This document shows, in pieces, positions 11,574-28,705 of a stretch of DNA of 64,000 nt (within the stretch, counting starts at the first letter, position 1; every line of letters begins with the position of its first letter). The DNA comes from Dehalococcoidia bacterium. GTDB taxonomy: Bacteria; Chloroflexota; Dehalococcoidia; Lucifugimonadales; UBA3495. The notes under the pieces are model-generated. The model was not told the origin of the DNA, ran no database searches, and was given only the letters and a program-made list of their open reading frames with translations. The stretch lies in contig OZ244064.1 of NCBI GenBank assembly GCA_965215425.1, forward strand, positions 1,244,095 through 1,308,094. The letters are read 5' to 3'. A program made the position numbers and the translations under genes.

Positions 11574-12755
11574 TTACCGGCCGCGGCCGGTGTAGTAAGA
11601 ATCGGTGGCGACTTTCAGACCGGCCACCCGGTTGGCTTGCAAGCTCTCCCGGCGCTGGGCGGCCCATTGATTGGAGGCGACAATACCGGCCAGGCTGCCC
11701 TGGAAGTGGGGCATTACGTGGCGGGCCAGCAGTTCATAACTGCGCAGTATCTTTTCCCGGGGCGCCCAATCTTCCACCCGGATCATAAAGCTGCCAAAGC
11801 CTCCGCTGATCTCCTGCAACCGCTCGATACCGGCGATGCAGTCTTCCGGCGTACCCACAATCCACTGGTTATGTTCCACCATAAAATCAACTATCTGATT
11901 GGGCGGGACATCCGGCACCTCATTGCCCAGGGTGTTGCCGAAATACTCGGTAATCAGGCGGCCCCCGCCCAGGCGAATGTCCTCCATGGCTTCCTTTTTA
12001 CTTTCGGCCAGGTGCATACCGACTACCAGGCCCCAGTCCTCCCGGCGCACCATCTTGCCGTGTTCCGCCGCCGACTCCTCGGCGATCGACCATAGTTCCT
12101 TGAGGCTGGTGGCCCGCACCGTGTCCCGGGGGATGCTCATGGAAAGCACCGCCGCCCCGTGCTTGCCGGCCAGGCTGACCCCCGCCGGGGACTGGACCGA
12201 GGCCACCGCCACCGGCAGATGCGGCTGCTGGTAGGGACGGAGTTGCAGCACCGCCTCGTTCAGCTCGAACCAGTCGCTCTTGTAGGTCAGGGGTTCGGTT
12301 TCGTTGAACAGGCGCAGGATGATGCCCAGGGATTCGTCCATCATTTCCCGCTGCCGCGCCGGGTTGATGCCCAGCATCAAGGCATCGGAGGCCAGGGCGC
12401 CGGGGCCGACCCCCAGGATGACCCGTCCCCGGGTCAGGTGGTCCAGCAGCACCACCCGGTTAGCCACCATCAGGGGATGGTGATAGGGCAGGCTGATGAC
12501 GCCGGTGCCCAGACGGATGTTGCGGGTGCGCTCGGCGGCGGTGGCAATGAACACCTCCGGGGAGGCGATGGTCTCCCAGCCGGCGCTGTGGTGTTCGCCG
12601 ATGTAGGCTTCATCAAAGCCCAGCAGGTCCAGCCATTGCAGCAGTTCCAGATCTCGTTCCAGGGCCAAAGTCGGGTTTTCGCCTACCCGGTGGAAGGGAG
12701 CCATAAAGACCCCGAATTTCATTCGCTGGGCCGGGCCGTTACTAGCGCCTGTCAT
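11574..12755 (-). CDS. LLM-class (luciferase-like) flavin-dependent monooxygenase
   Basis: MKFGVFMAPFH...AYIGEHHS... is typical of the LLM fold. Start set at ATG 12755, which is preceded by GGAGGACTTTGCG. Confidence 0.85.
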   Translation of the reverse strand: MTGASNGPAQRMKFGVFMAPFHRVGENPTLALERDLELLQWLDLLGFDEAYIGEHHSAGWETIASPEVFIATAAERTRNIRLGTGVISLPYHHPLMVANRVVLLDHLTRGRVILGVGPGALASDALMLGINPARQREMMDESLGIILRLFNETEPLTYKSDWFELNEAVLQLRPYQQPHLPVAVASVQSPAGVSLAGKHGAAVLSMSIPRDTVRATSLKELWSIAEESAAEHGKMVRREDWGLVVGMHLAESKKEAMEDIRLGGGRLITEYFGNTLGNEVPDVPPNQIVDFMVEHNQWIVGTPEDCIAGIERLQEISGGFGSFMIRVEDWAPREKILRSYELLARHVMPHFQGSLAGIVASNQWAAQRRESLQANRVAGLKVATDSYYTGRGR

Positions 12756-13023
12756 CGCAAAGTCCTCCCCTCTATCCTTTCCATAATGCCTTTCCCCAGT
12801 AAGCTGCCGTTTCCCCAATACCCGGCAAGTATTGAGTCATTCTAACACGGGTTTGGCGGTTTCATCTATGCCCATCGCAAACCTCCGGCCCCGGCCCTTA
12901 CCCGGGCGGGCCGGGAGAGCGGGCAGAGAGCGCGGGCCGGATTACGGCGGGACGGGGGGTAGCCGCAACCTGACAAAAGTGTTATCTTGAGTCGGACTAT
13001 ACTACCGAGGGGAGGAGAACCAA

Positions 13024-13449
13024 ATGGCCCAGATAAAGCATATCGCCATCGCCACCAATGACCCGGAAGCGACCGCCAAGTTCTATTCCGAGGTGTTCGG
13101 ACTCCGGGAGGTCGCCAAGCTGAACAGTGAAAACGCCAAGGGTTATATGCTCAGCGACGGCAACGTAAACATGGCAATACTGGACTTCCAGAACGACGCC
13201 GTAGCCGGCGAACGGGGCAAGGATTGGGAGGGGATTCACCACATCGGCTTCGAGGTGGAGAGCCTGGAACAGATTGAGGCCCGCCTGTCCGCCGCCAACT
13301 CGAAACCTATGGACGAGGTCAACCACGCACTGCACATCGGTATGAGCAGCGCCCGGACGCAGAACGTGGAGACCAAGTACGAAGGCCCCAACGGGGAGAT
13401 GATCGACGTTTCCGAAACCGGCTGGGTCGGCACGCGGGGATTGGACTAG
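13024..13449 (+). CDS. VOC / glyoxalase-family protein
   Basis: 141 aa. MAQIKHIAIATNDPEATAKFYSEVFGL and GIHHIGFEVESLE. GGGGAGGAG Shine-Dalgarno (SD) sequence upstream. Confidence 0.8.
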   Translation: MAQIKHIAIATNDPEATAKFYSEVFGLREVAKLNSENAKGYMLSDGNVNMAILDFQNDAVAGERGKDWEGIHHIGFEVESLEQIEARLSAANSKPMDEVNHALHIGMSSARTQNVETKYEGPNGEMIDVSETGWVGTRGLD

Positions 13450-13480
13450 CGAGCCGGGCTAATCCGGCTTCCCCAATCCG

Positions 13481-13770
13481 CCTCCGGTAGCTCCGGGACG
13501 CGCCGGAGCTTCGAGCCGGGCGTCCCGGGGCTACCGGAGGATTGCAGCCGGCGACTATCCGGCGTATCCGGCCCGGGGCGCGCCGGAGCTTCGAGCCGGG
13601 TGGCCCGGAGCTACCGGGGGATTGCAGCCGGCGACTATCCAGTTCATCCGGCGTATCCGGCCCGGGGCGCGCCGGAGCTTCGAGCCGGGTGGCCCGGGGC
13701 TACCGGGGGCTACCGGGGGATTGCAGCCGGCGACTATCCGGTTCATCCGGGCCGGCCCGGTTGGTTAAAG
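13481..13770. repeat. tandem repeat (units of 79 and 89 bp, about 3 copies); the first unit forms a ~60-nt near-perfect hairpin
   Basis: CGCGCCGGAGCTTCGAGCCGGG recurs at 13500, 13579 and 13668. ATTGCAGCCGGCGACTATCC occurs three times. CCTCCGGTAGC (13481-13491) pairs with GCTACCGGAGG (13530-13540). The repeat sits in a convergent intergenic gap. Confidence 0.85.
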
Positions 13771-13792
13771 GCGTATTCCGTACCCGCGCCCT

Positions 13793-14206
13793 TTACGCCG
13801 GCCCAAAGGCCAGGGCCGGCGTATCCTCGTCCGGCTCGGCCAAAATCAAAGCCAGGTTCATTCCGGTGGCGATGGTGTGGGGGTTGGCGGCGTCCACGCC
13901 CAGGATACGGGCGCTGAGGCGCGGCCCCTCGGCCAGGGTAACGATGCCGGAGCAGTAGGGGTTATTGCGGCCATAGCCCTGTTCGGTCAGGGCCGCCGGC
14001 GCTACCGAGATGCAGGTAAAGGCGCTGAGCCGCCCCTGACCGCTGAACCGGAACCACTCCATCTCCCGGCTGTGGCAGGCCGGACACATCGGCCGGGCCG
14101 CGGCGTACAACTTGCCGCAGGCCCGGCAACGCACTCCCATAAATTGCCCCTCTTTCAGGTAAGCATAGAAGGAGGCGGCGGTAAACTCCCGGACGGCCTC
14201 GGCCAT
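13793..14206 (-). CDS. DUF35 OB-fold/zinc-ribbon protein (thiolase partner)
   Basis: CRACGKLYAAARPMCPACHS zinc ribbon followed by an OB-fold. Start ATG 14206 has GGAGGGGG upstream, overlapping the thiolase stop. Confidence 0.8.
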   Translation of the reverse strand: MAEAVREFTAASFYAYLKEGQFMGVRCRACGKLYAAARPMCPACHSREMEWFRFSGQGRLSAFTCISVAPAALTEQGYGRNNPYCSGIVTLAEGPRLSARILGVDAANPHTIATGMNLALILAEPDEDTPALAFGPA

Positions 14207-14211
14207 AATCC

Positions 14212-15498
14212 TTACCCCCTCCGCAGGATGTGGACCACACAAGTGCCGCCGGTGCCGCCGACGTTGTGGGTCAGGCCCAGTTCCAGGTTGGGATTCGGCA
14301 CCTGGCGCGGGCCGGCCTCGCCGCGCAGCTGGTGGAAAGTCTCGATTACCTGGGCCACGCCGGAGGCTCCTACCGGGTGGCCCTTGGCCTTGAGGCCGCC
14401 GGAGGTGTTGATGGGCCGGTCGCCGGTGCGGGCGGTGCGGCCCTCATCCACGGCCCGGGGGCCTTCGCCCGGCTCAAAGAAGCCCAGGTCTTCGGTGGCG
14501 ACAATCTCGGCGATGGTGAAACAGTCGTGGACTTCGGCCACCTGGATGTCCGCCGGCGTTACCCCGGCCATGGCATAAGCCTGGGCGGCGGCTTCCCGGG
14601 CGGCGGAAAGCGAGGTTAGCTCCGCCGCGTCATGCAGCGCGCGGCCCGAAGCCTGGCCGACGCCGGCGAGCTGCACCGGCTTGTCGGTAAAGCTGCCGGC
14701 AATCTCCGCCGCGACCAGCAGCAGACAGGAGGCGCCGTCGGTAATGGGAGCGCAGTCATACAGGCGCAGGGGCCAGGCAATCCACGGGTTGGCCCCGGCG
14801 TCGTTCAGAAAGTCCATTTCGTCCTGCCAGTCGGGAACCGGCTCGCCCCGCTGCTCCGCCCGGGCCTTGCGTCGTTCCAGCAGCTCCCGCAGGCTGACAT
14901 TGAATTGAGCTTTGGGATTCAAGGCGCCGTTGTTGTGGTTCTTGATACCCACCTTGAGCAGGTGGCTCAGGCTGGTCTCGTAGCGGTCCATATGGGCCTT
15001 GGCCAGGGCGCCGTAGATGCCGGGGAAGGTCAGCCCGGCGGGGACTTCGTACAGCCCGTCGGCGGCGGAGGCCAGCACGTCGGTAACGCCCTCGGTGGGC
15101 AGGTTGGTCATCTTTTCCACGCCGCCCACCAGCGCCACATCGTACATCCCGGAGGCAATCGCCATAATACCCTCGCGGAGGGCGCTGCCGCTGCTGGCGC
15201 AGGCGTTTTCGATACGGGTTACCGGGGTGGGGGTCAGGCCCAACCAGTCGGCCAGGATGGGCGCCGTGTGGCCCTGTCCTTCAAATAAATCGGCGGAGTA
15301 ATTGCCGATGTACCCGCACTCAATATCCGCGACGTCAATGCCCTGGTCCAGGTGTTCCAGCAGGTCCTGAAAAGCCTCCGCAAACAGGTCCCGGGTGGTC
15401 TTGTCGCGGAAAGCGCCAAACCGGGACATACCGGCGCCCACGATGGAAACGGGCCGGCCCAGCCGCCGCCTTTTCGCCGGGGTGAGGGAAGTTGCCAT
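14212..15498 (-). CDS. thiolase (SCP-x / acetyl-CoA C-acyltransferase-like)
   Basis: Catalytic motifs are present: ENACASSGSAL, KGHPVGASG, HNVGGTGGTC. Start set to ATG 15498 (GGAGGT, 6 nt spacer); ATG 15504 is an alternative. Confidence 0.85.
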   Translation of the reverse strand: MATSLTPAKRRRLGRPVSIVGAGMSRFGAFRDKTTRDLFAEAFQDLLEHLDQGIDVADIECGYIGNYSADLFEGQGHTAPILADWLGLTPTPVTRIENACASSGSALREGIMAIASGMYDVALVGGVEKMTNLPTEGVTDVLASAADGLYEVPAGLTFPGIYGALAKAHMDRYETSLSHLLKVGIKNHNNGALNPKAQFNVSLRELLERRKARAEQRGEPVPDWQDEMDFLNDAGANPWIAWPLRLYDCAPITDGASCLLLVAAEIAGSFTDKPVQLAGVGQASGRALHDAAELTSLSAAREAAAQAYAMAGVTPADIQVAEVHDCFTIAEIVATEDLGFFEPGEGPRAVDEGRTARTGDRPINTSGGLKAKGHPVGASGVAQVIETFHQLRGEAGPRQVPNPNLELGLTHNVGGTGGTCVVHILRRG

Positions 15499-15742
15499 GC
15501 GCATACCTCCGTTGGGGATTGGCCTGGGGTCATTATGGTGGCCGGCGGGGGTGACGTCAATGGCGGATTGATAGCATCGTTCCGGAGGGATATAATCCGG
15601 AAATGAAAATGAGCCGACTATCCAGGTTGGTTTCACCTGGAAGAGCCCGGGGGCTCTTTATCGCCGGCTCTCCTTAAACGCAGTGATAACATATACCATC
15701 AAGGCGAGATGGTCAACGCCCCGTTTTCACCCCTTTTTCAAT

Positions 15743-15798
15743 GGTTCCGTTTACAATCAGTGTTCACCCGGTATCAAGAAGCGGCAACTACCCCCTAA
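15743..15798. repeat. 56-nt motif shared with 26574-26629 (core GGTTCCGTTTACAATCAG)
   Basis: 47 of 56 positions are identical to the second locus by my count, and the first 18 nt are identical. Confidence 0.7.
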
Positions 15799-15867
15799 CG
15801 GGATGGGCTGAATCCAGCATCGTTACGGGTTAAGAATGCCACAGAAAACACCATAGAACCGCAATGC

Positions 15868-15896
15868 TTGATATGCAACCCGGTTTCCGGTATTCT
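15868..15896 (+). promoter_or_regulatory. candidate sigma70-type promoter for the Grx-DinB gene
   Basis: TTGATA (15868-15873), 17-nt spacer, TATTCT (15891-15896). Confidence 0.4.
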
Positions 15897-15934
15897 GGCC
15901 TTGCCGGCCGGAAAACGGCCAGCGGAGGAAAGGG

Positions 15935-16705
15935 ATGATGCAGGTACACGTTTACACCAACCCTGGTTGATTCAGTTGCCGGACGTTGGAGGAGTTTCTA
16001 ACGTCCAACGGTGTTCAGTATGAGCACCACGACATCGCCAGCGAACCGGGGGCCAGGGAGTTCCTGGAAGGCCGGGGCGTCAAGTCGGCGCCGGTAACGG
16101 TGGTGGATAATGAAATCATCATCGGCTATTACCCCCGGAAACTGATTGCCACCTTGCAGCTGGATACCCAGGTTGACCTGACCGGCCGGACCGGTTGGCT
16201 GGCCGAAAAGTACGATAAAATCCTGAACGCCGCCATCCGGGCCACCCTCCAGCTGGCCCCGGAGCAGTTGCAGCGAGAAGTGTCCTGGCGGCCCGAAACC
16301 CTGCGCGACACCATCGTCCATATCCTTTCCTTCCCCGAACTGGCCTGGCTCAGCCACCGCACCGGCAGTATGAGCGCCGACGATATGCAGGCTTGCCGGG
16401 AGCGGCTGGCCGGCGTGAACGACCCGGAAGCCATCGCCGAGTACGGCGGCGGCGTTATCCGTAACGTTACCGAGTTTCTCGGCAACGATGACAGCGATAA
16501 TCTGGCGGCCTTTGACCGGGTGGTTCCCGCCCACTATGGCGGCGAGGTTACGGTGGTGGAATTGTTGAACATCATCCTGAGCCACAGCGCCCACCACCTG
16601 AAACAGGTTTACTGGTTTATGGAAACCGAGTTGGGCGTCGCCCCGGTAAACCCGGCTACGGCCGCAGATATGGAAGGCATATTTACACCGGAAGCCCTGA
16701 TTTAG
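15935..16705 (+). CDS. glutaredoxin/NrdH-like domain fused to a DinB/YfiT-like domain, with in-frame TGA at 15968-15970 (candidate selenocysteine UxxC; otherwise a pseudogene or TTG start at 15986)
   Basis: GGAGG (15924-15928), 6 nt, ATG 15935. The translation reads MMQVHVYTNPG-TGA-FSCRTLEEFLTSNGVQYEHHDI...VKSAPVTVVDNEIIIGY (Grx fold). C-terminal part has IVHIL...HSAHHLKQ (DinB-like His triad). The reading frame is continuous with listed ORF 15986..16705. Confidence 0.55.
15984..16010 (+). other. SECIS-like stem-loop downstream of the in-frame TGA
   Basis: CGTTGGA (15984-15990) pairs with TCCAACG (16004-16010). The 13-nt loop GGAGTTTCTAACG begins with GG and starts 23 nt after the U of UGA. 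Confidence 0.4.
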
Positions 16706-16717
16706 CATCAAGATTTG

Positions 16718-16746
16718 GCGTCATTCCGGCTCCGCCGGAATGACGC
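16718..16746 (+). terminator. perfect 12-bp stem hairpin after the Grx-DinB gene
   Basis: GCGTCATTCCGG-ctccg-CCGGAATGACGC. There is no clear T-tract, so intrinsic-terminator status is uncertain. Confidence 0.4.
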
Positions 16747-16896
16747 TGGTGGGCGGCCCGGCCGTTTACCGGCGCCCCGGCGGGAGAACCTCCCGCGCAC
16801 CTCCGCTCCGCCAACTCAGCGAGCGTTTACCGGTGCGCCGGCAAAGGGACCCGGCCCATTCAACCCAATCCGAGAGCCACGAAATAAGGAGCGCTT

Positions 16897-17793
16897 ATGG
16901 CAACTTATGACCCGAGTCAAAAGTTTGAAGTGGCCGTCCACGAGCGGGAATACCGGACGGATGGCAGCGAATCCTGGATTGTGCGCGTCTATCAGCCCCA
17001 AGTCTCCGACCCAGAGTCCAGCCCGGGGTCTGGCCCGGGAGCCGGTCCCTTTCCGGCGCTGCTGGACGTACACGGGGGAGCCTGGAACCGGGGGGAACGC
17101 CACAACGACGAGGTGATGAACCGGGCCCTGGCCGCCAGCGGCATTGTGGTCGCCGCCGTGGACTTCCGCCTGGCCCCGGCCCATCCCTATCCCGCCCAGG
17201 TGGTGGACGTGAACTACGCCACCCGTTGGCTCAAGGCCCACGCCGCCGAGTTCAACGCCACCGCCGACCGGGTGGGCGGCATCGGTTCCTCCAGCGGCGG
17301 ACATACTCTGATGCTCAGCGCCATGCGGCCCGACGACCTCCGCTATGCGGTTTTGGAGTTGCCCGGCGCCGCCGGAGTTGACGCCACCCTGGCCTACACC
17401 ATCTGCTGCTGGCCGGTGCTGGACCCCTACGCCCGCTACCAGTACGCCCGGGAAGCGAACAACGAGCGGCTGGCCGCCTCCAGCGAGGCCTACTTCCTGA
17501 ACCAGGAGGCGATGCGGGAAGGGAATCCCCAGCAGATCCTGGAGCGCGGCGAAAAGGCGCTGCTGCCCCCCACCCTGATTATCCAGGGCACCCGGGACGA
17601 CAACGTGCCGCTGTCCATCCCGAACCGGTTTGCGGAAGCCTTCCGCGCCGCCGGCGGCGACATCCAGCTGGAAATTTTCCCGGAAATGCCCCACGGTTTT
17701 GGCAATACCCCCGGCCCGGAGTCGGACCGAGCCATTGAATTGATGCAGGCTTTTATCGCCCGCTGCCTGGCGACGGCCGGGGCGGCGGTTTAA
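16897..17793 (+). CDS. alpha/beta hydrolase (esterase/lipase, HSL-like)
   Basis: 298 aa. HGGAW oxyanion motif, GIGSSSGGH nucleophile elbow and a C-terminal His (EMPHGF). Confidence 0.85.
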   Translation: MATYDPSQKFEVAVHEREYRTDGSESWIVRVYQPQVSDPESSPGSGPGAGPFPALLDVHGGAWNRGERHNDEVMNRALAASGIVVAAVDFRLAPAHPYPAQVVDVNYATRWLKAHAAEFNATADRVGGIGSSSGGHTLMLSAMRPDDLRYAVLELPGAAGVDATLAYTICCWPVLDPYARYQYAREANNERLAASSEAYFLNQEAMREGNPQQILERGEKALLPPTLIIQGTRDDNVPLSIPNRFAEAFRAAGGDIQLEIFPEMPHGFGNTPGPESDRAIELMQAFIARCLATAGAAV

Positions 17794-18001
17794 CCGGGGT
17801 GGGTTTCGCTGAAGGAGCGGGGTTGCCGGGGCGGGCTTTGCTTTGTACCCGCCCGTTGCGCGCCGCCGCCGGATTGAACGGCAGCCGGCTTTGCGGTTGC
17901 CGCCGCCGGATTGCCGGGATGGGCTTGGCGCCGGCCCCGTTGCGCGGGGCCGGCCTTCCCTGGCGGGTAAGACGCGGGTAGGACGCCACAGGAGGCGTAC
18001 C

Positions 18002-19108
18002 TTGAGAATCGACCGAGTGGAAACGGCCTTATACCAGATTCAACGACAGCCGGGCCTGTCCAACTCCAGTTCGCAGATCGATTCCACCAGCCTGCTGCTG
18101 GCCCGGGTTAGCTCCGACGCCGGGCCGGAGGGCATCGGCTGGACTTACAGCCACGGCAGCAGCGGCCGGGGGATGAAGGAGGCGATCGACACCCTGCTGG
18201 CGCCCCGGCTGCTTGGCGAAGACCCCGGCCATCCCGGTGATATCGAAAGGCTGTGGGACCGGTTGTGGCGCAGCGTCTTTCCCAACATCACCATGGCCGG
18301 CCTCACCGCAGTGGCATTGGCGCCGCTGGATATTGCCCTCTGGGATCTGGCCGGCAAAGCCGCCGGCCAACCCCTCTTTCGCCTGCTGGGTGGCTACCGG
18401 AACCGGGTTCCCGCCTACGGTAGCGGCCTGGACCTGGCCTATTCCACGGAGGAGTTGCTGGACGAGGTGGAGAGCTTTATCGGCCAGAACTATTGGGGTG
18501 TGAAAATCAAGATCGGCCGGGAACGGCTGGAGGAGGACGTTGACCGGCTGCGCGCCGTGCGTCAGGCCATCGGCCCCCACACGCCCCTGATGGTGGACGC
18601 CAATCAACGCTGGACCGTCGGGGAAGCCATTACCCGGGCCCGGGCCATGGAGCAGTTTAACCTGTTCTGGCTGGAGGAGCCGATTCCGGCGGAAGACCAT
18701 GCCGGCTACCAGCGGCTGGGCCGCACGGTCAACGTCGCCCTGGCCGCCGGCGAGGGCGAGCACCTGACCGAACAATTCCTCGACCTGTTCCAGCGGGGCG
18801 CTATCCAGTTCGTGCAGGCCGACGTGTGCCGGGTCGGTGGCGTAACCCCCTGGATGCGGATTGCCCGCCTGGCCGACGCCTACCACCTGCCCATGGCCCC
18901 GCACCTGGTAGAGGAATTATCCGTCCACCTGTGCTGCGGCGCGTCCAACGGTTTCCTGGTGGAACACCTGCCCACCCTGAACCTGAACAACACCGGCTTC
19001 ATCCGGAACCCGGTCCTGCCCCAACAGGGAGTTTTCACCCCCCTGAAGACCCCGGGACATGGGGTAGAGTTCGACTTCCCGGCCCTGGAAAAGTTCCGGT
19101 TGGATTAG
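18002..19108 (+). CDS. enolase-superfamily enzyme (mandelate racemase / muconate lactonizing family)
   Basis: VKIKIG, MVDANQRW, FWLEEP and AAGE motifs. Start set to TTG 18002, which follows AGGAGG. The longer listed ORF has a Pro/Arg-rich, implausible N-terminus. Confidence 0.85.
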   Translation: MRIDRVETALYQIQRQPGLSNSSSQIDSTSLLLARVSSDAGPEGIGWTYSHGSSGRGMKEAIDTLLAPRLLGEDPGHPGDIERLWDRLWRSVFPNITMAGLTAVALAPLDIALWDLAGKAAGQPLFRLLGGYRNRVPAYGSGLDLAYSTEELLDEVESFIGQNYWGVKIKIGRERLEEDVDRLRAVRQAIGPHTPLMVDANQRWTVGEAITRARAMEQFNLFWLEEPIPAEDHAGYQRLGRTVNVALAAGEGEHLTEQFLDLFQRGAIQFVQADVCRVGGVTPWMRIARLADAYHLPMAPHLVEELSVHLCCGASNGFLVEHLPTLNLNNTGFIRNPVLPQQGVFTPLKTPGHGVEFDFPALEKFRLD

Positions 19109-26662: not shown

Positions 26663-27586
26663 TCAAAGGACTTGCGCCAGGCGCTGCTCCTGATACCAGG
26701 CGATGATTTCAGACCCGGTGGCCGCCCAAACCCCACCCTGTTCCATCATGTAACCCAATGCCCGGTCCACGCTGCCGATGCGGAAGGGCTGGCCGACCAG
26801 CCAGGGATGCCAGTTCAGCGCCATAACCCGGCCGCTAACCGAGCCGTCCTGACGCAAGGTATCGAAGCTCTCCGTGAGCATCCGCCGGTAGGCGGCCACG
26901 GTAACCTTCCGGTCGGCCAGGGCGGCCACATCGTCCAGTTCGTAAAGCAGCGGCAGGGCGAAGAACGGTTCCTGGCCGGTGGTCATCGGGTAGGGCTGCT
27001 CGTCGTTGGCCCAATCGCAAACGTAGCGCAGGCCGGCCTCGGCCAATAACCGGGGGGTGCGGTGAGACTCGCCGTACTCCGGCCCCAACCAGCCCTGCGG
27101 GACAACGCCGGTGGCCCGGGTCAGGGCGGCAAGGGAAGTCTGAATGTACTCCCACTCTTCCGCTTCCGACATATTGCTGGTAATCATGCGGCTGACGGAG
27201 ATACCGTGGCCGATGACCTCGCAGCCCCGCTTCAGGCAATGGCGTACCAGGTAGGGATAGTTTTCGGCGGTGAGCGCGTCCAGCGCGATGGTAGCTTTAA
27301 CGCCGTGTTTTTCCAGCACGTCCAGCAGCCGGAAGATGCCGACCCGGTGCCCGTATTCCCGGTGAGACAGCCGGGCGTAGTCCGGGAAGTCTCGGGGCGT
27401 GGAGCCGCCGGCCAGGCGAGCGACCTGAAAGCTCCCGGGCGGAGCTTGCCACTCCATATGTTCCAACACCAGGATGACGCAGAGGGCTACCCGGGCCTGG
27501 CCGGGCCAGCGCAGGGCCGGGCGGCCGGTTATGGGCGACCAGGCGTGGTGCGGGTGATCCATCCCGAAGGTACGTTGCGCCGGCAT
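26663..27586 (-). CDS. polysaccharide deacetylase-family protein (PuuE-like fold)
   Basis: MPAQRTFGMDHPHHAWSPITGRPALRWPGQARVAL... Start trimmed to ATG 27586. Confidence 0.8.
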   Translation of the reverse strand: MPAQRTFGMDHPHHAWSPITGRPALRWPGQARVALCVILVLEHMEWQAPPGSFQVARLAGGSTPRDFPDYARLSHREYGHRVGIFRLLDVLEKHGVKATIALDALTAENYPYLVRHCLKRGCEVIGHGISVSRMITSNMSEAEEWEYIQTSLAALTRATGVVPQGWLGPEYGESHRTPRLLAEAGLRYVCDWANDEQPYPMTTGQEPFFALPLLYELDDVAALADRKVTVAAYRRMLTESFDTLRQDGSVSGRVMALNWHPWLVGQPFRIGSVDRALGYMMEQGGVWAATGSEIIAWYQEQRLAQVL

Positions 27587-27739
27587 ATTGACCTCGCTTT
27601 TGATTGATGCGTTGCTGCGTCGCTCCGGGTCGCTCCGGTTCACGAAATCGGGGAAATAGTCGGGAAGCAACCGGGAAGGAAAGGCTTGGGAAACGGTCGA
27701 ACAGTCGCCGCGGCTCAGGCCGGGCCGCACCGGGCCAAT

Positions 27740-28705
27740 TCAGATACTCCCACTCCCGCCCCTGCCCCCGCGCCACTGAGGTTCGGCCGGGCCGCACCGG
27801 GCCAATTGCTGCGCGTGGGCCACGGCCTGGTCGTAATAGTTGGCGATGTAGTATTCGGCAATTTCGTCGGCGGTGGTCTGCCAGACGCCATCATGGGCCA
27901 TTATGTACCCCAGGATGTCGTCCAGGTACTTGACCCGGTGGGGTTGACCAATGAGGAAGGGATGCAGGGCAATGCACATAACCTGGCCGCTCCTGGCGCC
28001 TTCCCGGTAGAGCTGGTCGAACTGGGCCTTGCAAATCTCGGCAAAATAGTCGGTCCCGTAGTGATTGTCCCGCAGCACCGAGGAATCGTTCAACTCGATG
28101 GAGTAAGGCACCGACACCAGCTTGCCCGCATTGACTTTGATTGGCGTCGGCTGATCGTCGTGAAACCAGTCGGTATGGTAGATTAACCCGGCCTCGGCCA
28201 TCAGGTCAGGGGTATGCACGCTTCCCGAAATCGCCGGCCCCAACATTCCTTTCAACTGCTTCCCGGTATGCCGCTTCAGGGTATCAATACAATCCCGGTA
28301 GAACTCCCGCTCCTCATCCTCGGTGCCGGTATAAAGGTAACGGGTGTTGTAGATGCCGTGGCTCATATAATCCCAGTCCCGGGCCAACATCGCCGCCGCA
28401 ATTTCGGGGAAATGTTCCAGCACCGCCAGGTTCAGCGACACACAGCAACGGATTCCGTACTTATCCAACGGCTCCAGCATCCGCCAGAAGCCGACCCGGT
28501 TGCCGTAGTCCCGGTAGGAGTATTGCTGCACGTCCGGGTAGGGCGTGCGCGGCCACGGATTGCGCACGCCGGCGTGCTCCGGGAGATACTCGTAATGCTC
28601 CACGTTGGGGGAAATCCAGAGCGCAACCCGGGCCTCCCCGGGCCACTGGATAACGGGCCTATCGATAATGGGCAGGTAGTCAATGCGGTCGGGAGGCAGG
28701 GCCAT
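27740..28705 (-). CDS. polysaccharide deacetylase-family protein (paralog)
   Basis: 321 aa. IIDRPVIQWPGEARVALWISPNVEHYEY is collinear with the neighbouring paralog. Confidence 0.8.
   Translation of the reverse strand: MALPPDRIDYLPIIDRPVIQWPGEARVALWISPNVEHYEYLPEHAGVRNPWPRTPYPDVQQYSYRDYGNRVGFWRMLEPLDKYGIRCCVSLNLAVLEHFPEIAAAMLARDWDYMSHGIYNTRYLYTGTEDEEREFYRDCIDTLKRHTGKQLKGMLGPAISGSVHTPDLMAEAGLIYHTDWFHDDQPTPIKVNAGKLVSVPYSIELNDSSVLRDNHYGTDYFAEICKAQFDQLYREGARSGQVMCIALHPFLIGQPHRVKYLDDILGYIMAHDGVWQTTADEIAEYYIANYYDQAVAHAQQLARCGPAEPQWRGGRGGSGSI

Follow-up and report, generated by a model that had tools for sequence, protein, structure and literature searches.

A predicted selenoprotein of glutaredoxin (UxxC)–DinB architecture in Dehalococcoidia

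The sequence studied is a 64,000-nucleotide stretch of a Dehalococcoidia genome (contig OZ244064.1, assembly GCA_965215425.1), referred to as the window. At positions 15935/15938–16705 of its forward strand lies a gene with an in-frame TGA codon at 15968–15970. With a probability of about 0.9, this gene encodes a selenoprotein of approximately 255 amino acids, in which a glutaredoxin domain carrying a UxxC redox motif is joined to a DinB/YfiT-type helical bundle. The UGA is probably decoded as selenocysteine (Sec, U) by SelB and Sec-tRNA. A UxxC selenoprotein had been proposed from the letters of the window by a sequence-only reading, and the comparison with related genes bears it out: TGA occupies the codon in 80 of 80 species-representative genomes, homologs with Cys align at the position, and a conserved hairpin and constrained synonymous sites accompany the codon.

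Reading frame, TGA codon and Cys counterparts

The frame from ATG 15935 reads MMQVHVYTNPG-TGA-FSCRTLEEF and is shared with the 239-aa open reading frame (ORF) called from TTG 15986. The Shine-Dalgarno (SD) sequence GGAGG, the 6-nt spacer, ATG 15935 and the in-frame TGA named in the sequence-only reading are all present in the sequence. As that reading had proposed, the true start lies upstream of TTG 15986, at ATG 15935 or ATG 15938; alignment of homologs supports this, since an upstream ATG and SD are conserved and the TTG codon is not. Either ATG may be the start in the window, as HVYT is preceded by M-x-V or M-x-x-V in most homologs. Since gene callers end the frame at the UGA and reopen it at TTG 15986, the deposited protein is without strand beta1 and the active site. 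The only cysteine of the window protein other than C15 is C155, which is not conserved; U12 and C15 would therefore make up the whole redox centre.

The protein search gave 964 cluster representatives, of which 120 matches are listed. Nearly all of the listed matches are 236–240 aa in length, cover 93% of the query and are cut where the local ORF is cut; full-length entries among them are three (P0048, P0056 and P0062). P0048, 70% identical to the window protein, has Trp at the Sec position in the protein and TGA in its DNA, because the gene caller used genetic code 4. P0048, P0056 and P0146 all have Trp at this position, within a GWFSC motif, and look full length; DNA was read for P0048 only. 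P0062 corresponds to locus L002 (ENA ERZ25766727, contig ctg223081_2x_l, 2001–2762), in which the Sec codon is CGA (Arg) and the contig label indicates 2x coverage. It is the sole homolog without TGA, and pair 34:49 of its first downstream hairpin (hairpin 1, see below) is mismatched (G·A). The CGA may reflect either genuine loss of Sec or a mistake in the 2x-coverage contig.

A scan of one genome per GTDB species detected 206 relatives, the best 80 loci of which were analysed. Almost all of the 80 belong to Dehalococcoidia/Chloroflexota metagenome-assembled genomes (MAGs); sponges, the Red Sea and the SAR202 cluster account for many of them. A Candidatus Entotheonella provides one locus. The tblastn alignments extend from query residue 1–4 through 256 in 80/80 loci. 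TGA is found at the identical codon, in the context V-H-V-Y-T-N-P-G-TGA-F-S-C-R-T, in all 80, in metagenome contig L001 and in the window. It thus occupies the Sec codon in 82 of 83 related genes, a recurrence that excludes chance; TAA, TAG and TGY occur in none. An ATG lies 10, 11 or 15 codons 5′ of the TGA in 82/82 TGA genes and is preceded by an SD-like motif in 81 of them. Comparison with the consensus across the eight codons preceding the TGA yields 134 synonymous and 26 nonsynonymous codon differences, which indicates that the stretch before the TGA is translated and selected as protein. The sequence-only reading had suggested asking of the homologs whether they share the N-terminal strand and which codon they have at the UxxC position, and both answers favour it: the strand VHVYTNPG is common to the homologs, and the codon is TGA in the species-representative genomes and Cys in distant homologs. 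The downstream start is not shared. The codon at this place is TTG or GTG in 34/83 homologs and CTG, TTA, GTA, CTA, CTC or CTT in the others.

A profile search over 1.84 billion representatives gave 434 matches. Among them are 16 distant, full-length, two-domain proteins (E = 1e-14 to 2e-6) in which V-[YF]-W-Q-P-G-C-S-S-C is aligned with V-Y-T-N-P-G-U-F-S-C and in which the DinB C-terminal motif W-H-S-A-Q-H-T-R-Q is retained. The TGA accordingly sits, as first claimed, where the first Cys of the glutaredoxin CxxC motif belongs, U12-F-S-C15 being aligned with the Cys of WQPGCSSC. About 20 further representatives begin abruptly at ...KEFLS, directly past the motif; in 3/3 examined subfamilies of this type, an in-frame TGA is present at the same position, with a start codon ahead of it. 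These subfamilies (L085, GCA_016190745.1; L086/L087; L088; profile E about 1e-22 to 1e-11) have the predicted Sec motifs VRVFYRVG-U-FTC, VTVYWQPG-U-TAC and VKLYYRPG-U-SSC. The second Cys of the motif is kept in the distant subfamilies with FTC, TAC, SSC and CSSC. Folds downstream of the TGA in L085, L086/L087 and L088 are not distinguishable from those of shuffled sequence. Judged from the aligned motifs, the glutaredoxin–DinB superfamily consists of several predicted Sec clades and several Cys clades, and therefore bears the classical signature of a selenoprotein family. Use of Sec would reach well beyond the SAR202-like clade, because the three distant subfamilies also have the in-frame TGA.

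Two explanations without recoding are weighed against these data. In the first, the TGA is a true stop, the annotated TTG 15986 is where translation begins, and the upstream ORF of 11 codons is non-functional or encodes a leader peptide. ORF and gene callers do pick TTG 15986, and most database entries of the family are 236–240 aa in length and begin MEEFL. The explanation is nevertheless highly improbable: the annotated codon, with no SD ahead of it, is a valid start only in the 34 homologs mentioned, the product would be without strand beta1 and the entire glutaredoxin redox motif, the upstream codons are under protein-level purifying selection behind a conserved ATG and SD, and Cys-type homologs read straight through. 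The second, a decaying pseudogene or a stop introduced by sequencing or assembly error, is hardly credible. It draws on the CGA for TGA in one related 2x-coverage contig and on a few fragmentary or frameshifted entries (P0182 and P0191), but the same TGA recurs in 82/83 independent assemblies, at protein identities as low as 62%, with frames intact on both sides and without TAA or TAG; synonymous sites around the TGA are more conserved, not less.

RNA structure around the UGA

Nearly frozen synonymous sites, running from shortly ahead of the UGA into the second downstream hairpin (hairpin 2), are the clearest sign of constraint at the RNA level and point to selection acting on the RNA in this stretch. 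In codons 8–27 (9 sites), fourfold sites have a third-position entropy of 0.47 bits, compared with 1.39 bits in the remainder of the gene (80 sites; Mann-Whitney p = 6.7e-5). Most of the frozen bases are T (CCT, GGT, GGT, GTT), contrary to the G/C preference of the gene. The fourfold GGT and GTT codons within hairpin 2 are more than 95% conserved.

The minimum free energy (MFE) fold of 15960–16030 comprises hairpins 1 and 2 (Table 1) and has −28.7 kcal/mol, z = −4.0 against shuffles. Covariation was assessed on 74 distinct homologous 87-nt segments. The base of hairpin 1 (GGACG/CGUCC) is conserved, with 85% of cells paired. Pair 15986:16001 covaries: C-G in 24 segments, U-A in 21, G-U in 6, U-G in 2, unpaired in 21. 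The substitutions in this pair change the encoded residue on either side (Leu/Val18 and Thr/Ala/Ser23). The conserved structure as a whole exceeds all 500 shuffles and all slid controls. When homologs are folded one by one, a hairpin occurs at the first position in 83/83 (mean −12.9 kcal/mol); L034, a divergent sequence from the Red Sea, has the stem of hairpin 1 rebuilt in a shifted register.

In bacteria, the selenocysteine insertion sequence (SECIS) has a stem about 10 nt past the UGA and an apical loop that contains a G and lies about 16–37 nt from the UGA. The geometry of hairpin 1 fits this consensus, and hairpin 1 is likely to be the SECIS. Hairpin 2 may serve as an accessory of the recoding element or, alternatively, as the SelB site. 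Hairpin 1, whose stem begins 10 nt past the UGA, would direct the recoding, probably aided by hairpin 2. A SECIS-like hairpin past the TGA had been foreseen by the sequence-only reading; such a hairpin is conserved, at 15981–16006, and is not the stem with a 13-nt loop then proposed. That 7-bp stem (15984–15990/16004–16010) forms in the window sequence and is neither the MFE nor the conserved structure. As a conserved SECIS it was rejected: its third pair is present in 34/74 segments and its covariation is not above shuffles.

Immediately around the codon, the UGA lies in the loop of a 4-bp hairpin, 15963–15975 (CUGG/UCAG), 97.6% paired across homologs. The fourfold sites of the CCT and GGT codons preceding the UGA are more than 90% conserved.

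Reading of the UGA as Trp, Cys or Gly, by a reassigned code or by SECIS-independent readthrough, would give a full-length protein that is not a selenoprotein. Code-4 translations do place W at the site (P0048, P0056, P0146). Such a reading of the UGA is very unlikely. TGA terminates 18 of 57 crude ORFs in the window, about one third, as an ordinary stop, and the genetic code is therefore standard and not reassigned. The site is that of the catalytic Cys of CxxC in homologs, which Trp or Gly would destroy; a conserved hairpin and frozen synonymous sites flank the codon; and Dehalococcoidia are documented as rich in selenoproteins (PMC13326102).

Domains, relatives and putative function

The N-terminal domain is a glutaredoxin/NrdH-type thioredoxin fold, as the sequence-only reading had recognized from the start of the protein. 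Pfam Glutaredoxin (PF00462) matches residues 4–62 with E = 1.6e-8 and 35.1 bits (cutoff 22.9) when U is written as C. A full-length homolog, P0048, which has Trp at the Sec position, was modelled with AlphaFold2 on a 51-sequence alignment; the model has a mean predicted local distance difference test score of 93.1 and a predicted template modelling (TM) score of 0.86. Residues 3–73 of this model form a beta-alpha-beta-alpha-beta-beta-alpha thioredoxin fold with the redox motif between strand 1 and helix 1; UxxC follows strand VHVYT at the N-terminus of helix 1. The nearest PDB structures by Foldseek are those of cGrx1 (7C10, 7C12; TM 0.90–0.95, root-mean-square deviation about 1 Å, 40% identity), on which the modelled domain superposes; BC3987 and NrdH are next (TM 0.76–0.89). 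Among NCBIfam profiles, the domain is related to, but not a member of, YruB (TIGR02196; 57.7 bits, cutoff 88.55) and NrdH (TIGR02194; 43.3 bits, cutoff 85.75). NCBIfam 20.0 has no model covering the family, the best matches being these below-cutoff YruB/NrdH-type glutaredoxins and a weak UXX-star match.

Connected to the glutaredoxin domain by a short linker, the C-terminal domain is a DinB/YfiT-type bundle, also as initially read. Residues 86–228 of the P0048 model form four helices (86–105, 123–143, 164–183 and 204–228). Foldseek matches of this domain are YizA, DR0053, YjoA, BCE_2162 and YfiT (TM 0.7–0.8, identity 12–17%). The family profile finds DinB-like proteins in the PDB at E = 3.6e-7 and recovers the same two groups as Foldseek. 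Many close homologs carry precomputed PF12867 or PF05163 matches. Among the 51 sequences, 20–70% identical to the reference P0048, just four columns are invariant: H129, H217, H221 and the cis-Pro ahead of strand 3, P53. The three histidines are predicted to be the DinB metal triad. Beyond the bundle, a C-terminal tail D-x-x-G-[IL]-x-x-P-x-x-[LV] (residues about 245–256; 16667–16702) is nearly invariant across the Sec and Cys subfamilies; its G and P are present in at least 90% of the 51 sequences, and it is conserved as strongly as the active-site residues.

The fusion, which the sequence-only reading had found unfamiliar, is real but not unique, since Cys-type and other Sec-type versions are widespread in metagenomes. 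The Cys-type glutaredoxin (CxxC)–DinB metagenome proteins (P0199, P0190, P0222) share the two domains, the cis-Pro, the His triad and the G-[IL]-x-x-P tail; they differ in having Cys for Sec (WQPGCSSC), are 20–25% identical to P0048 and belong to no curated NCBIfam family above cutoff. The site of cGrx1 from Clostridium oremlandii, itself a native selenoprotein, is U(or C)-P-x-C (PMC7642778). This protein, too, has a thioredoxin fold in which Sec opens the U-x-x-C motif at the beginning of helix 1. It differs from the window protein in being a stand-alone domain of about 85 aa that reduces MsrA, whereas in the window protein a DinB bundle of about 150 aa is attached to the domain; in the motif, U-P-x-C versus U-F-S-C; and in the host, an anaerobic Firmicute versus marine and sponge Dehalococcoidia. 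With BstA/YfiT, mycothiol S-transferase (MST), YizA, YjoA and DR0053, the window protein shares the four-helix bundle, three invariant His and a C-terminal H-x-x-x-H...Q; these known DinB/YfiT members are stand-alone, without a fused redoxin, and none is a selenoprotein. The layout is analogous to that of Omega, Xi and Lambda glutathione S-transferases (GSTs), in which a thioredoxin-fold domain with a catalytic thiol(ate) precedes an all-helical domain, and the chemistry may possibly resemble that of Cys-type GSTs. The protein is not a GST: its helical part is a predicted metal-binding DinB bundle with no sequence relationship to GSTs and a Foldseek TM of about 0.3. UXX-star selenoproteins (NF041212, NF041211, NF041114) have a glutaredoxin-like fold and Sec, the latter three residues from the C-terminus versus residue 12 of 256 here; the match is weak (36.4 bits; NF041212 cutoff 66, cutoffs 66–100).

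Redoxins of the UxxC and CxxC types use the first residue of the motif to attack a disulfide or mixed disulfide, which the second then resolves. The DinB module of the window protein probably binds a metal and a thiol or electrophilic substrate, in the manner of bacillithiol and mycothiol S-transferases, and the tethered UxxC domain probably acts as nucleophile or reductant, attacking or resolving a mixed disulfide or selenenylsulfide. The fusion would bring the redoxin close to the transferase-like site. A thiol adduct or oxidised intermediate arising on the DinB domain would come under attack from the selenolate and leave via an Se–S bond with Cys15, followed by re-reduction by a cellular thiol or thioredoxin reductase. 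By analogy, the fusion would be a one-chain counterpart of mycoredoxin/MST or bacilliredoxin/Bst pairs. Such an intramolecular redoxin–transferase relay is put forward tentatively, at odds a little short of even. Members of the DinB superfamily (BstA/YfiT, MST) are metal-dependent low-molecular-weight-thiol S-transferases with a His3 site, in which the His-ligated metal binds and activates the thiol (PMC10950700).

The protein may instead be a selenoprotein whose DinB domain is not a thiol-transferase partner. Its His3 site could act with the selenolate in binding or traffic of a soft metal or metalloid (Hg, As, Cu, Zn), or the domain could be no more than a regulatory module or a scaffold. 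In favour of this, few physiological substrates are known for DinB/YfiT proteins (PMC10950700), several computationally predicted selenoproteins are metal-binding (PMC13188914), and the operon context indicates no thiol pathway. A role of this kind is unlikely: the UxxC motif and the cis-Pro glutaredoxin fold nearest to cGrx1 argue for a catalytic redox cycle, and the characterised enzymes of the DinB superfamily are S-transferases.

A number of results count against the assignment of the gene to a selenoprotein of this architecture and against its proposed recoding element and mechanism. Covariation in hairpin 1 is mainly that of one pair. The upper stem of hairpin 1 is ambiguous between a continuous register and a GG-bulge register. 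RNAalifold favours a third pairing that includes the UGA, between the UGA region and 15992–15998. SECIS families in Rfam give no match at the gathering threshold nor at E ≤ 10. DinB and DinB_2 match residues 106–239 with E = 3e-4 at 21.3 and 21.6 bits, just below their cutoffs of 23 and 24.8. The neighbourhood comparison brought out no conserved operon partner, and the cooperation of the glutaredoxin and DinB domains is purely inferred. SelA, SelB and SelD (E. coli queries, NC_000913.3) have no tblastn match in the window and 82 loci, and ARAGORN finds no tRNA-Sec in the window or 60 loci. The missing sel genes mean only that they do not adjoin the gene. Support for Sec decoding at the level of the class comes from the BSepDB survey, which covers only species with the Sec pathway: two Dehalococcoidia MAGs are among the ten bacteria richest in selenoproteins, with 49 and 46 genes. 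One of the two shares UUID-style isolate naming with many of the loci analysed here (PMC13326102).

Genomic context and significance

Coordinates of the features are given in Table 1. The promoter match agrees with the consensus at 9/12 positions, and its region holds 2 such sites versus 0.6 expected. The inverted repeat past the stop codon reads GCGTCATTCCGGC-TCC-GCCGGAATGACGC, has no second copy in the window and could form a hairpin at the end of the transcript; as it lacks a T-run, it is not called by the terminator scan.

Table 1. Positions of the features of the predicted selenoprotein gene within the window
Feature	Position	Strand	Remarks
Sigma-70-like promoter match, TTGATA-17-TATTCT	15868–15896	+	about 40 nt 5′ of start codon; weak evidence
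Shine-Dalgarno sequence, GGAGG	15924–15928	+	6 nt ahead of ATG 15935, 9 nt ahead of ATG 15938
Complete predicted selenoprotein coding sequence, ATG 15935 or ATG 15938 to TAG 16703–16705	15935–16705	+	256 codons including Sec12, then TAG
Glutaredoxin/NrdH-type thioredoxin-fold domain, residues ~3–76	15941–16162	+	invariant cis-Pro53 at 16091–16093
Suppressed synonymous variation, codons 8–27	15956–16015	+	fourfold-site entropy
In-frame TGA, proposed Sec codon U12, position 1 of UxxC	15968–15970	+	
TGC, Cys15, resolving Cys of U-F-S-C	15977–15979	+	FSC invariant across close family
Hairpin 1, best SECIS candidate; 11-bp stem 15981–15991/15996–16006, loop GAGU	15981–16006	+	starts 10 nt past UGA; loop 21 nt past UGA
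TTG taken as start by ORF and gene callers, internal Leu18 codon	15986–15988	+	no SD ahead
Hairpin 2; 8-bp stem 16010–16017/16021–16028, loop GUA	16010–16028	+	97.8% of cells paired; hardly varies
DinB/YfiT-type four-helix bundle, residues ~89–232	16199–16630	+	H129 16319–16321, H217 16583–16585, H221 16595–16597
Perfect 13-bp inverted repeat, 3-nt loop	16718–16746	+	12 nt past stop codon; without T-run; read directly

The gene stands by itself. Its upstream neighbours, on the other strand, are a thiolase and a ChsH2-like protein. The downstream neighbours are an alpha/beta hydrolase, an MR/MLE enzyme and a SpoU methylase; this neighbourhood (esterase, MR/MLE and SpoU downstream) is common to close relatives only. 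Window positions 11574–19108 contain a luciferase-like monooxygenase, a glyoxalase-fold protein, the thiolase with its ChsH2-like OB/zinc-ribbon partner, the alpha/beta hydrolase and the MR/MLE enolase-superfamily enzyme, a gene content that is presumably typical of SAR202-type Dehalococcoidia. A rough search for further TGA-interrupted ORFs in the window gave none convincing, mostly off-frame GC-rich artefacts. At 26663–28705 on the reverse strand, a single TGA at about 27740–27742 separates two ORFs of one frame, 321 and 355 aa in length; these are most likely just adjacent genes.

Sec-containing glutaredoxins are already known and experimentally proven. A 2026 selenoproteome review places glutaredoxin (PF00462, UxxC) among the selenoprotein families, before those "predicted with high confidence", and nowhere contains the words DinB, YfiT or mycothiol (PMC13188914). 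No description of a glutaredoxin–DinB fusion of Sec or Cys type was found in the literature, and no curated family was found. Literature searches for DinB or DinB-like proteins with selenoprotein or selenoproteome, SAR202 or sponge symbionts, and for DinB with a fused glutaredoxin, gave nothing relevant. The tblastn procedure of BSepDB may well have captured the gene under "Glutaredoxin".

By standard annotation, the first 17 codons of the gene, including that of the catalytic Sec, are lost. The same annotation error affects hundreds of related marine and sponge-associated Dehalococcoidia genomes, and hundreds of entries named "DinB family protein" or "hypothetical" (236–240 aa) are without the first 15 or more residues, among them the catalytic residue. 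The truncated entries would be put right by a family model that admits Sec as an exception. A widespread selenoprotein would be added to marine and sponge Dehalococcoidia, a clade already flagged as selenoprotein-rich, which bears on the selenium demand of the ocean. The physiological role of DinB/YfiT proteins is largely unknown; a UxxC-redoxin fusion in Sec and Cys forms predicts that such bundles work with a dedicated redoxin, and offers a tractable Sec-to-Cys protein for probing DinB–redoxin cooperation.

A further proposal, possible but doubtful, is that the glutaredoxin selenolate works directly with the DinB His3-metal centre and that the proteins form an undescribed selenoenzyme family, with a layout convergent with that of GSTs. 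If true, Sec would be fixed throughout the SAR202-like and sponge-symbiont Dehalococcoidia, the 80 best species-level genomes containing no Cys variant. One of the ocean's abundant bacterial clades would then have a selenium-dependent core reaction, for example a reductive or thiol-dependent transformation of recalcitrant or electrophilic organic compounds, and the fusion would provide the first clue to the physiological partner of a DinB-superfamily domain.

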